IMG/VR virus record: IMGVR_UViG_2778261639_000001 | Span: 1 to 5,354 of that record | DNA length: 5,354 nucleotides | Source of the DNA: a virus | Lineage: Duplodnaviria; Heunggongvirae; Uroviricota; Caudoviricetes | Reading direction: 5' to 3' (one strand) | In this document: positions 1,427-5,354 of the stretch, piece after piece | Position numbering within the stretch: the stretch's first letter is position 1 | How the letters are laid out: each line of letters opens with the position of its first letter | Notes under the pieces: generated by a model | What the model was told of the DNA's origin: nothing | The model's input: the letters and a program-made list of their open reading frames with translations, nothing else | Database searches by the model: none | Translations under genes and position numbers: made by a program

Positions 1427-1713
1427 GACTTAATCTTCCCCTCCTTCAGCAGTATCGCCTGCGTCCTGATCACGCCTTCGAGGTGGTAAAGTCTGGCATC
1501 TTTGTTGTCGATAATCATTGTGCGTCGGTCGATTTCATCGTGACACGCGCTACAAGCCCATGCGCCGATCAGGTCGTCAGGCTTCATTCCCGTTCCGCAA
1601 ATTCCAGCCATCCGGTAATGTGCCAGAACTGTAGTTTCAGGATTGCCATTGCATACGCCGTAAATACGTACCTGGCATTCTCTGCCGCGCGCTTCTTTGC
1701 GTAGGTTAGCCAT
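1423..1713 (-). CDS. ybcO: YbcO-like DUF1364 protein (putative zinc-binding nuclease)
   Basis: 96-aa product resembles DLP12 YbcO as recalled (RGRECQVR..GVCNGNPET.VLAH.R..G.CGTG.KP.DLI...CS.CHDEIDRR), with conserved Cys/His ligands. ATG at 1711-1713 overlaps the upstream TAA stop (TAATG). Confidence 0.75.
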   Translation of the reverse strand: MANLRKEARGRECQVRIYGVCNGNPETTVLAHYRMAGICGTGMKPDDLIGAWACSACHDEIDRRTMIIDNKDARLYHLEGVIRTQAILLKEGKIKS

Positions 1714-1982
1714 TATGGTTCACTCCAGTAATTCTCAATTGCAGCAGCCATTCTCTGCATCCACTCAGCCAGCTTTAACGCAGCTTCTCTTTCAGAACCA
1801 CATTTAGGGAAATCCTTCATTTCCATGCTGGCCTTATATGTTCTGAATGCCAGGTCTCCGGTAATAACCAACTCCTGATCAAGCACCGAGCGTTTATTCC
1901 GGTGTTGAACGTAATAGACAGATTCAGTCCGCATTTCTTCTCTGTCTTTTTTGAAGGAAATAAGCTCAGAGAAATCACTCAT
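1713..1982 (-). CDS. Hypothetical protein (89 aa), no family assigned
   Basis: ORF embedded in the operon: ATG at 1980-1982 lies 2 nt after the ninF stop, and its TAA overlaps the start of the next gene. I could not assign a family from memory. Confidence 0.6.
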   Translation of the reverse strand: MSDFSELISFKKDREEMRTESVYYVQHRNKRSVLDQELVITGDLAFRTYKASMEMKDFPKCGSEREAALKLAEWMQRMAAAIENYWSEP

Positions 1983-2324: not shown

Positions 2325-2848
2325 GCCGCCCTCCTGACGCCCTGCCCGATCGCCATCAATGCCGCTTTGGATACGGTAGTAAACATCCGTCGAGGACTGA
2401 TGAACGGTCGCCAAATCAGCAGCATGGAGCCTTTACTGTTTCCCTTCTTCTCCAGCCCTGTCGATGGTTCGATAAAATTAATCCGTCCATCAGTGATAAT
2501 GCGAACTTCGTCAACACTCTCCAGAGCCTTGCTGAACCATCCGACAGACATATCCTCTGGCACAAGCATCACTACCGTCTGTCGCTGTTGTATGCACTGC
2601 TCAGCGGCTTTTTCCACCCACGGCCTGATATTGCTGTACGGTGGGTTATTCCAGATTGCACCGTGGCTTATCCACTCAGAATTGAGTGCGTCGTCGGCCT
2701 CAGTTAGCCAGTGAGCGCACAGAGCATTTTTGTCGCTCGCAGCTGAATCCAGCCAGAATCCAAACTCAATATCCAGCGCATCAAAAAGCCAAAGCGGCGT
2801 TTGCCAGCAGTCCTTGTCGTGTGCTGGTGTATTTGATTTGATAGTCAT
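2321..2848 (-). CDS. Phage-type DNA N6-adenine methyltransferase (orphan MTase)
   Basis: 175-aa product has the N-terminal DCWQTP motif and the NPPY catalytic motif typical of the phage Dam N6-adenine MTase family. ATG at 2846-2848 overlaps the ninB TGA stop (ATGA). No restriction endonuclease partner is present in the window. Confidence 0.8.
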
Positions 2849-3291
2849 GCAGCCCTACCTTTTCGTTGTGACCATTCATACTCTCGCCGGGAGTCATCAC
2901 TCCACCGCACGTTGCGCTCTGAGCCGAACCAAAACATGATTTCGATAAGCTCAGTCATGCTGGCCTTTCGCATTTTGCTGGTACGCACGCCAAGCATGAC
3001 AACGCCACCATCGATACCAGGCACACTTCGTTGCTCCAGTTTTTTGGTCTTAAGCCACAGGGCAGTGAACAGGTCTTTCCAGTCCTCCGGCGCAAGTCTC
3101 TGTCCATGCCAAAGCACCTGACGTGATACGTCCTGCAATAACGCCCACATAAGGCGGTTTTGAGGATTGCTCCGCTTTGGTTCTTTAATGTGGACTTCGT
3201 GAGGTGACTTGTCGTCGATCGGAAGTGAGAGTATTGCGTCTATGGCGTTGTTTCTGATTGCTTCGTTGCGAAGCATGTATATTTGCTTCAT
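2845..3291 (-). CDS. ninB: NinB (Orf-family recombination mediator)
   Basis: Product resembles lambda NinB as recalled (...NAI.A......P.....RS..QNR..WA.L.DVSRQV.WHG..L....WK..FTA......MRK....ELIE....FG.ER.V.WSD......EW..R.G.RAA). I take the ATG at 3289-3291 as the start, with GAGGTG 5 nt upstream; the track's 3297 start is a GTG two codons upstream. Confidence 0.85.
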   Translation of the reverse strand: MKQIYMLRNEAIRNNAIDAILSLPIDDKSPHEVHIKEPKRSNPQNRLMWALLQDVSRQVLWHGQRLAPEDWKDLFTALWLKTKKLEQRSVPGIDGGVVMLGVRTSKMRKASMTELIEIMFWFGSERNVRWSDDSRREYEWSQRKGRAA

Positions 3292-3298
3292 TGTCACC

Positions 3299-3505
3299 TC
3301 AACTCACAAAACGCCACGCCATTTTTGCTACAGCGACAGGCGCAACACCGATAATCACCCACAGGAAAATGCTACCGAAAAGCACACCAACCAGGTCTTT
3401 ACCTTCGCCTACCAGCCGGACAAAACTGCTGGCAACCACAATGAACGTCGCCACCATCCACATAGCACCGAGAATCCTCAATGCAGAAAAAATCAACTCA
3501 ACCAC
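3299..3505 (-). CDS. Hypothetical small membrane protein (68 aa, two predicted TM helices)
   Basis: Start is GTG at 3503-3505, preceded by a strong SD (GGGGGAGAG, 6-nt spacer); an internal ATG at 3461-3463 is an alternative. Two hydrophobic stretches (LIFSALRILGAMWMVATFIVVASSFV and LVGVLFGSIFLWVIIGVAPVAVA). TGA stop is 7 nt before the ninB ATG. No family recognised, and the overlapping plus-strand ORFs are low-complexity. Confidence 0.45.
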   Translation of the reverse strand: MVELIFSALRILGAMWMVATFIVVASSFVRLVGEGKDLVGVLFGSIFLWVIIGVAPVAVAKMAWRFVS

Positions 3506-3520
3506 GATTTACTCTCCCCC

Positions 3521-3552
3521 AAATAAAAAGGCCTGCGATTACCAGCAGGCCT
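3521..3552 (-). terminator. tR2-like rho-independent terminator between ren and the nin region
   Basis: Minus strand reads AGGCCTGC-TGGTAATC-GCAGGCCT, a perfect 8-bp stem (6 GC pairs) with an 8-nt loop, followed by TTTTTATTT. It sits 26 nt downstream of the ren stop, the same position as lambda tR2 as I recall it. Confidence 0.55.
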
Positions 3553-3577
3553 GTTATTAGCTCAGTGATGTAGATGG

Positions 3578-3868
3578 TCATCTTTTAACTCCATATACCG
3601 CCAATACCCGTTTCATCGCGGCACTCTGGCGACACTCCTTAAAAATTAGGTTCGTGCTCATCTTTCCTTCCCGTTCTTCCTTGGTAGCAAACCGGTAATA
3701 CACCGTTCGCCAGACCTTACCTTCGATAACCAGAAGACCTGCCCGTGCCATTTTAGCCGCGGCCTGATTTATGCTGGTTACTGTTGCGCCTGTTAGCGCG
3801 GCAACGTCCGGCGCACAGAAGCTATTATGCGTCCCCAGGTAATGAATAATTGCCTCTTTGCCCGTCAT
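3578..3868 (-). CDS. ren: Ren
   Basis: 96-aa product is near-identical to lambda Ren as recalled (MTGKEAIIHYLGTHNSFCAPDVAALTGATVTSINQAAAKMARAG...). ATG at 3866-3868 overlaps the P TGA stop (ATGA). Confidence 0.9.
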   Translation of the reverse strand: MTGKEAIIHYLGTHNSFCAPDVAALTGATVTSINQAAAKMARAGLLVIEGKVWRTVYYRFATKEEREGKMSTNLIFKECRQSAAMKRVLAVYGVKR

Positions 3869-4566
3869 ACACTTGCTCCTTTCAGTCCGAACTTAGCTTT
3901 GAGTTCTGCGATCTTCGCCAGAGCCTGTGCACGATTTAGAGGTCTACCGCCCATGACAGGAAGTTGTTTTACTGGTTCAGGGATCGCCTCACCACGGTTA
4001 ATTCTCGCAGTCATATGGACAAGCTCATCTGCGGCCTTACGGCGTAATTCCGCATCAGTAAGCGCATTGGCCCGCATGTTCTGATACAGGTTGGTAACCA
4101 GCCAGTAGTGCGCGTTTGATTTCCACGGATAAGACTCCGCATCCGGATACAGGCCTCGCTTCCGGCAATACTCGTAAACCATATCAACCAGCTCGCTGAC
4201 GTTTGGCAGTCCGGCGATAACGGATGCTTCTTCCCGGCACCATGCAACAAACTGCCCGGGTGATGGCAGGAATGGTCGATTCTGCCGACGGGCTACGCGC
4301 ATTCCTGCGTTAACCTGTTCCATTGTGGTGATCCCGTTTTCCCGGAAAGCCAGAACCCACTGGCGGCGGATTTCGTTCAGTTCGTTCTGGTCACGGTTAG
4401 CCAGGCTCGCCGGGAAAGTTGCCAGTAACTGGCTGAACACACCGTTGATGATCTGCGCTACCTGTTGTACCTGCGGCTTTTCGTCGTACTGTTCCGGCAT
4501 GTTGTTGGCGATCCGACGCATCTGCTCACGGTCAAAGTTAACCATCTGTGCGGCGATGTTTTTCAT
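3865..4566 (-). CDS. P: Replication protein P (DnaB helicase loader)
   Basis: 233-aa product is near-identical to lambda P as recalled (MKNIAAQMVNFDREQMRRIANNMPEQYDEKPQVQQVAQIINGVFSQLLATFPASLANRDQNELNEIRRQW...). ATG at 4564-4566 overlaps the O TGA stop (ATGA). Confidence 0.95.
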   Translation of the reverse strand: MKNIAAQMVNFDREQMRRIANNMPEQYDEKPQVQQVAQIINGVFSQLLATFPASLANRDQNELNEIRRQWVLAFRENGITTMEQVNAGMRVARRQNRPFLPSPGQFVAWCREEASVIAGLPNVSELVDMVYEYCRKRGLYPDAESYPWKSNAHYWLVTNLYQNMRANALTDAELRRKAADELVHMTARINRGEAIPEPVKQLPVMGGRPLNRAQALAKIAELKAKFGLKGASV

Positions 4567-5277: not shown

Positions 5278-5354
5278 TGAACCGCCCCGGGAATCCTGGA
5301 GACTAAACTCCCTGAGAAAGAGGTAAACAGAATGACTAAAAATACTCGTTTTTC
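5278..5354 (+). mobile_element. Left end of IS629/IS1203-like insertion sequence (IS3 family), truncated by the window edge
   Basis: TGAACCGCCCCGGGAATCCTGGAGACTAAACTCCCTGAGAAAGAGGTAAACAGAATGACTAAAAATACTCG matches the left inverted repeat and orfA start of IS629-type elements as I recall them. It begins abruptly where O homology ends. Confidence 0.8.
5332..5354 (+). CDS. IS3-family transposase OrfA, N-terminal fragment only
   Basis: ATG at 5332-5334 is preceded by AAGAGG and encodes MTKNTRF..., the recalled N-terminus of IS629/IS1203 OrfA. The CDS continues beyond the window. Confidence 0.7.

Follow-up and report, generated by a model that had tools for sequence, protein, structure and literature searches.

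T4 Imm is a small hydrophobic inner-membrane protein that confers superinfection immunity and that is made early in lytic growth, not from a prophage. The exclusion genes known as 'morons', among them HK97 gp15, Cor and SieA, encode small envelope proteins with a role accessory to the core life cycle of the phage; a moron is a transcription unit by itself, with its own promoter and terminator, and is expressed from the prophage. Class II holins, which have two transmembrane domains (TMD) and include S21, are about 70 aa in length and belong to the late lysis cassette, where they are encoded next to the endolysin. In lambda, P22 and HK620, the interval between the replication genes and ninB contains ninA, a mini-ORF for a small hydrophobic product of 26-27 aa that holds the terminator tR2 within its frame. 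Translation of NinA starts just 5' of tR2, and a closely following ribosome represses this terminator (PMC4824070).

We analysed a stretch of DNA of 5,354 nucleotides (hereafter the window), an early-right segment of a lambdoid E. coli prophage with the replication and nin genes on the minus strand, and within it an open reading frame of 68 codons (ORF68). With T4 Imm, which belongs to another phage lineage, ORF68 shares a works-like analogy only, and no sequence or profile relationship was detected (no Pfam match at all). Its product resembles class II holins, including that of the same prophage, in having about 70 aa and two predicted transmembrane (TM) helices, but the gene is located in the early-right operon. 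Like the moron products, it is a small phage-encoded protein, assigned to the envelope by prediction and accessory to the core life cycle; however, ORF68 lies within the delayed-early operon behind tR2 and lacks both a promoter and a terminator of its own, and is therefore not a classical moron. With NinA it shares its small size, its hydrophobicity and the interval between the replication genes and ninB, but ninA is shorter, contains tR2 and lies upstream, and lambda and P22 have ninA without ORF68.

Position of ORF68 in the early-right region

The genes of the window follow the order O (partial), P, ren, ORF68, ninB, a Dam-type methyltransferase gene, ninE, ninF, an 89-aa ORF, DUF1364, rusA, ninH and a Q-type antiterminator gene. 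ORF68 is thus the first full-size gene past the replication module in the lambdoid early-right ('nin') region, and in the matching prophage the holin, lysozyme and Rz genes are found about 5 kb downstream of it. The features around ORF68 are the following:

3578..3868, minus strand: ren, the upstream neighbour of ORF68, with its stop at 3578
3498..3581, minus strand: ninA mini-ORF, 27 aa (MTIYITELITGLLVIAGLFIWGRVNRG), hydrophobic, holding the whole tR2 hairpin
3521..3552, minus strand: tR2 intrinsic terminator, with an 8-bp GC-rich stem (AGGCCTGC/GCAGGCCT), an 8-nt loop and the T-tract TTTTTATTT
3512-3520, minus strand: Shine-Dalgarno (SD) sequence GGGGGAGAG, 6 nt 5' of the ORF68 GTG; an identical sequence is used by ninB in lambda and P22
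3299..3505, minus strand: ORF68 coding sequence, 68 aa, GTG start and TGA stop; member of PHROG 1165, identical to RefSeq WP_000229807.1
3299-3301, minus strand: TGA stop of ORF68, followed by GGTGACA (7 nt) and by the ninB ATG at 3289-3291
2845..3291, minus strand: ninB (Orf recombination mediator), the downstream neighbour, with its ATG 7 nt past the ORF68 stop

An earlier, sequence-only reading of this DNA had placed a 68-aa ORF at 3299-3505, with a strong SD sequence, a stop 7 nt before ninB and a terminator in the gap behind ren, and we found all of these elements in place. The same reading had described that gap as about 70 bp of non-coding DNA. The 72 nt that separate the ren stop (3578) from the ORF68 start codon are instead filled by the 27-codon ninA minigene, whose ATG overlaps the ren stop (ATGA) and whose TGA overlaps codons 2-3 of ORF68 (GTGGTTGA), so that the end of ninA and ORF68 overlap by 8 nt. 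The lambda counterpart of this mini-ORF is MTIYITELITGLLVIAGLFIWGRGKS, and in P22, HK620, SPN9CC and HK630 ninA is annotated as an ORF of 81-84 nt whose start overlaps the last replication gene (ATGA) and which contains tR2. Ribosomes translating ninA would cover the tR2 terminator. One tblastn row appeared to label ORF68 itself as ninA; this identity was ruled out, since annotation tables place ninA at the upstream 84-nt ORF. The frame in the window that has 26-27 codons, an ATGA start overlap and tR2 inside is that at 3498-3581, and not ORF68.

Two side observations concern this mini-ORF and its surroundings. Nucleotide conservation of ninA is so high that selection on the peptide and selection on the terminator are inseparable. 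In HK022 (L006:457-1150), the ninA-like ORF diverges past 'MTIYITELI', and HK022_57, an ORF of 203 aa resembling HNH/AP2-type homing endonucleases, is located between the helicase gene and the tR2-ORF68 cassette, an arrangement suggestive of a mobile insertion at this same boundary between modules.

A cassette of about 78 nt (ATGACC...AGGCCTGCTGGTAATCGCAGGCCTTTTTATTTGGGGGAGAG) was almost invariant at all the loci that we compared, whatever gene preceded it, and identical in lambda and P22. The tR2 hairpin that it includes was likewise near-invariant over all related loci and identical in those two phages. What follows the SD sequence differs: it is the ATG of ninB in lambda and P22, and the start codon of ORF68 in the window, HK620 and SPN9CC. 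In these last three, ninB begins 7-8 nt past the ORF68 stop, and in a few phages it stands behind further small genes. Since the same cassette is joined straight to ninB in lambda and P22, ORF68 is an optional gene slotted between the cassette and ninB, which bears out the previous description of the ORF as extra with respect to lambda. Among 88 loci that could be classified, the gene upstream of the cassette was a DnaB-type helicase gene in 50, ren in 31 and another gene in 7, and ninB was found downstream of ORF68 wherever that flank was present. To judge from these arrangements, ORF68 is not tied to one module type. No foreign-DNA signature was seen in its composition.

Another small ORF of the window, the 89-aa frame in the interval between ninF and DUF1364 (1713-1982, minus strand), corresponds to a hypothetical protein called by PGAP in an identical prophage (WP_001279421.1).

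Conservation, distribution and selection

At 50% GC, any one frame has a probability of about 0.04 of being open over 68 codons, and the window holds 51 ORFs of at least 30 aa. Frame length alone is therefore not enough, and it is conservation that raises ORF68 above chance. We gathered 171 related loci from phage genomes, one E. coli chromosome and IMG/VR contigs. The frame was intact across exactly 68 codons in 163 of these, and the start codon was GTG in all loci except one, which has ATG. The alleles form two subfamilies that are about 47% identical and that align without a single indel: type A, found in the window, HK022 and HK75, and type B, found in HK620, mEp213 and Salmonella P22-like phages. 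Ratios of nonsynonymous to synonymous substitution (dN/dS, Nei-Gojobori) were 0.36 among type A alleles, 0.51 among type B alleles and 0.35 in comparisons across the types. Purifying selection on ORF68, as estimated from these ratios, is only moderate, as is usual for hydrophobic helices, in which many conservative replacements are tolerated. We discarded ninB as a control for dN/dS, its alleles being mosaic and having been compared without alignment.

A profile search of 1.84 billion cluster representatives returned 25 matches only. The distant relatives among them, of 63-66 aa and about 30% identity, come from Erwinia, Serratia, Pantoea and Izhakiella, and they keep K/R10, W16, G53, P56, K61 and W64 as well as the turn VN.G.DP and the tail VKF.W.FI. 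Of the five distant loci that could be read, four have the relative directly 3' of P- or DnaC-type replication genes, where it heads a nin-like string of genes; in the fifth, it is located within a recT region of the early-left type. As length, motif and position are all kept at such divergence, we consider the coding question settled. The coding evidence, which had been rated as moderate when only the window was at hand, is strong in the light of the 163 intact frames, the dN/dS values and the distant homologues in the same position.

Tolerated stops in related prophages, which the sequence-only reading had named as an argument against the gene, were seen in one lineage only, and the other loci keep the frame. 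H-19B (L007:1195-1401) and seven IMG/VR contigs (L170-L176) share a nonsense allele at codon 15 of a type-B ORF68, where the other type-B alleles have Gly. This allele looks like a single inactivation event tolerated in that lineage, and it shows that ORF68 is dispensable, not that it is non-coding. The absence of the gene from lambda and P22 leads to the same conclusion of dispensability. At the level of sequence comparison, these loci show ORF68 to be a genuine, conserved and non-essential accessory gene.

Within the family, the allele P0147 is a mosaic whose N-terminal half is of type A and whose second half is of type B. Synonymous divergence between the types was also uneven, with a pS of 0.41 over the 3' 30 codons (window 3302-3390 against type-B alleles) and of 0.73 over the 5' half. 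This pattern suggests recombination within ORF68 near the ninB junction.

The ORF68 protein matched the profile of PHROG 1165, a family with no function assigned, over its full length (residues 1-68 against profile positions 1-68 of 68, E = 7.5e-37). The position of the family, past tR2 or the replication genes and before ninB, was found at the 88 classified loci and for the Erwinia and Serratia homologues. Proteins 92-98% identical to that of the window are encoded in the same tR2/ninB interval of HK022, HK75, HK629 and HK630; the gene is annotated in these phages, in mEp phages and in Stx2 phage 86, it appears in databases under names such as HK022_58, HK75_43 and WP_000229807.1, and its product is called a 'hypothetical', 'phage' or 'membrane' protein depending on the source. 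The ORF had previously been presented as unassigned. This holds for its function and not for its annotation, given the RefSeq hypothetical protein, the entries in several phage genomes and PHROG 1165. ORF68 is thus an already catalogued conserved hypothetical gene, an ordinary accessory gene that adds no new category of element.

The exact protein was present on about 995 contigs. At the DNA level, 529 of 5426 complete E. coli genomes (~10%) gave a match, with near-full coverage in 416 and up to 4 copies per genome. Carriers include siphoviruses (lambda-, HK97- and HK022-like) as well as podoviruses (P22-like and Stx2a phages), and most records of Stx2a-converting phages in the collection carry ORF68. 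A scan of genome contigs yielded 4 loci only, two of which were in metagenome-assembled genomes (MAGs) labelled Cellvibrionaceae and Collinsella (L009 and L011) with 90-95% identity to the window protein; these two are most likely mis-binned enterobacterial phage DNA.

Predicted topology and expression of ORF68

The ORF68 protein (MVELIFSALRILGAMWMVATFIVVASSFVRLVGEGKDLVGVLFGSIFLWVIIGVAPVAVAKMAWRFVS) has a GRAVY of 1.53 and two hydrophobic stretches, at residues 11-29 and 39-60, where 19-residue Kyte-Doolittle means peak at 2.15 and 2.48, respectively. An approximate sum on the Hessa scale gave a dG of about 0 or negative for both segments. AlphaFold2 (AF2), run on an alignment of 17 sequences, modelled helices at residues 2-33 and 38-67 with a mean pLDDT of 91. 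The two TM helices proposed earlier are thus also predicted by hydropathy, by the approximate Hessa estimate and by AF2, although the modelled hairpin carries limited weight, given the shallow alignment and the fact that a pair of hydrophobic helices nearly always yields such a model. The predicted segments are the following:

3419..3475, minus strand: predicted TM helix 1, codons 11-29, flanked by R10 and R30, with conserved G13, W16 and F21; from hydropathy, AF2 and conservation
3392..3418, minus strand: loop, codons 30-38, RLVGEGKDL in the window and VN.G.DP in the consensus; predicted to be periplasmic
3326..3391, minus strand: predicted TM helix 2, codons 39-60, with a conserved stripe of L42, W49, G53, P56 and A60
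3302..3325, minus strand: C-terminal tail, codons 61-68, KMAWRFVS; conserved, basic and aromatic

When charges were tallied over 15 members of the family, the termini had +40/-6 and the loop +22/-24. Together with the positive-inside rule, this tally favours cytoplasmic N- and C-termini and a periplasmic location of the short acidic loop. We infer that the ORF68 protein would insert in the inner membrane as a hairpin with cytoplasmic termini and the VN.G.DP loop exposed to the periplasm. Conserved residues form one stripe along each helix (R10, G13, W16/M17 and F21 in helix 1; L42, W49, G53, P56, A60 and W64 in helix 2), and these stripes may represent either an intramolecular interface of the hairpin or a surface that binds a partner.

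We searched positions 3100-4000 for transcription signals. No sigma-70-like promoter was found on either strand, and tR2, located 5' of ORF68, was the only terminator on the minus strand. In all related loci, the tR2 hairpin and its T-tract lie immediately 5' of the SD sequence, and transcripts ending at the T-tract would consequently lack the ribosome-binding site of ORF68. Lacking its own promoter, and with its SD sequence beyond the tR2 T-tract, the gene should need read-through of tR2 for its expression, in agreement with the dependence on antitermination that had been anticipated from the sequence. In lambdoid phages, tR2 read-through is carried out by N-modified polymerase during infection or induction.

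According to the arrangement of these signals, ORF68 would be carried by N-antiterminated delayed-early transcripts from pR during infection or induction. It would be translated from the strong SD sequence that serves ninB in lambda and P22, and its translation would probably be coupled to that of ninA upstream, through the GTGGTTGA overlap, and to that of ninB downstream, across the 7-nt spacer. The nin region has been described as a 'chain of interlinked genes', which both the ninA overlap and the short ninB spacer fit (PMC8022706). The product would not be expected in a quiescent lysogen, and such lytic-only expression argues against a role of ORF68 in protecting one. Taking coding status, expression and topology together, we hold it to be probable that ORF68 is a real, delayed-early accessory gene for a membrane hairpin.

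In the prophage analysed here, the last 77 nt of the window (5278-5354, plus strand) come from an IS1203/IS629-type member of the IS3 family and comprise its terminal inverted repeat together with the first part of orfA (MTKNTRF...). The element is inserted in gene O, whose frame matches the reference protein only from 'SEITKLPVKR' on, and the same junction between the IS and the replication protein is annotated in the O157:H7 strains F8798 and AR-0430. With an insertion in gene O, this prophage is probably replication-defective. The IS may also be polar on the genes downstream of pR, and pR-driven expression of ORF68 may be blocked in this prophage.

Candidate functions of the ORF68 protein

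Scans of the ORF68 protein against Pfam, NCBIfam and PADLOC gave no match even at permissive E-values, and a sequence-profile search of the PDB detected no relative. Foldseek comparison of the AF2 model with BFVD and the PDB retrieved generic helical hairpins only (designed TM proteins and ATP-synthase c subunits, for instance), each of them with E >= 0.8. An Rfam scan of the window gave a sub-threshold chance match to a snoRNA elsewhere and none at ORF68, and our literature search found no paper on this gene. Hence neither homology in Pfam, NCBIfam or PADLOC nor a fold match in BFVD or the PDB below E = 0.8 links ORF68 to the exclusion families (T4 Imm-like, SieA, HK97 gp15). The features of Hok/Gef-like type I toxins were not found either: there was no match to the Pfam family HOK_GEF, the protein has two TM segments, and no Rfam antisense RNA was detected in the region.

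By analogy with T4 Imm, we tentatively propose that ORF68 encodes an inner-membrane modulator of the lytic phase that acts by helix packing and whose most plausible effect would be the exclusion of competing phage. The protein, made in the lytic phase, would pack the conserved stripe of TM helix 2 and the C-terminus, helix to helix, on a partner in the inner membrane. This packing would leave the infected cell refractory to a competing phage, as T4 Imm does, or would adjust the membrane otherwise. The spread of the gene over both siphoviruses and podoviruses weighs against an exclusion factor that is specific to one route of DNA entry. It is conceivable, though we would not press the point, that ORF68 and its relatives of 63-66 aa constitute a new family of inner-membrane factors that lambdoid phages of Enterobacterales deploy in the lytic phase, which would bind a specific membrane protein of the host or of a prophage and thereby exclude competing phages or disarm a membrane-based abortive-infection effector.

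Another proposal, which we regard as unlikely, is that the hairpin oligomerizes and partly depolarises or permeabilises the inner membrane, either stopping host functions during takeover or tuning the time at which the holin fires. The protein is indeed very hydrophobic, with two TM segments, and falls in the size class of class II holins and small membrane toxins; moreover, the weak GTG start is kept in 170 of the 171 loci despite the strong SD sequence, which is compatible with limiting a harmful dose. However, the early operon to which ORF68 belongs is distant from the lysis cassette, and the prophage already encodes a class II holin, with which the ORF68 profile aligned at a probability of only 0.7% (hhalign). 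The tail of ORF68 comprises 8 residues with K61 and R65 as the only charged ones, and is not the charged C-terminal tail of a holin. There is no dual-start motif, neither helix offers a polar or charged face suited to lining a pore, and no HOK_GEF or holin family of Pfam was matched.

Rather improbable, in our judgement, is a role in counter-defence, in which the hairpin would neutralise a membrane-located abortive-infection effector (a RexB-type channel or another TM protein) of the host or of co-resident prophages, and would thus serve a purpose like that of ren. ORF68 occupies a slot at the end of the replication module, beside ren or in loci where ren is replaced, its inferred expression is confined to the lytic phase, and it is common in E. 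coli strains with many lambdoid prophages, where several copies can coexist in one genome. Nevertheless, the reasoning is purely positional, homology to known anti-defence proteins was not detected, and the dN/dS values show no diversification of the arms-race type.

That ORF68 might be an evolutionary passenger, translated without a selected function and carried in mosaic exchange between two recombination 'linkers' (the tR2 cassette and the 5' end of ninB), appears very unlikely. Its dispensability, its dN/dS only moderately below 1 and the small, taxonomically narrow family (25 representatives in 1.84 billion proteins) would all suit a passenger. This explanation does not account well for a length and frame maintained without any indel at 47% identity, and motif and position are kept at about 30% identity even in Erwinia and Serratia prophages that do not have the E. 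coli tR2 cassette spacing, which would hardly be expected unless the protein were under selection. Finally, an opposite-strand or non-coding origin of the conservation, through the plus-strand ORFs 3209-3526 or 3258-3560 or an RNA element, is effectively refuted, because the two antisense frames, although stop-free in 56 and 34 of the 79 distinct alleles, are interrupted in the others whereas the sense frame is open in 78, because the region has neither an Rfam match nor a plus-strand promoter, and because distant protein homologues exist for the minus-strand product only.

The results on ORF68 provide a trustworthy coding call, its separation from ninA, an expression logic that can be read from the sequence and a defined distribution. 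If ORF68 and its relatives did form the family of partner-binding factors considered above, the spread or the outcome of induction of Shiga-toxin phages could be influenced, given that most Stx2a-converting phage records in the collection carry the gene. A demonstration of phage exclusion or counter-defence would add one more small lambdoid membrane effector, might have a bearing on the ecology of Stx phages, and would not create a new category.

Rescanning the neighbours of ORF68 in HK022, SPN9CC and the distant loci identified no shared neighbour family. PF26207 (Phage_phiTE_015), considered as a conserved partner gene because it is found near four distant homologues, was rejected, as it is absent from the window. 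In the Erwinia and Serratia prophages, the PF26207 gene is situated one to three genes 3' of the ORF68 homologue at four of five loci (L092, L096, L098 and L099).
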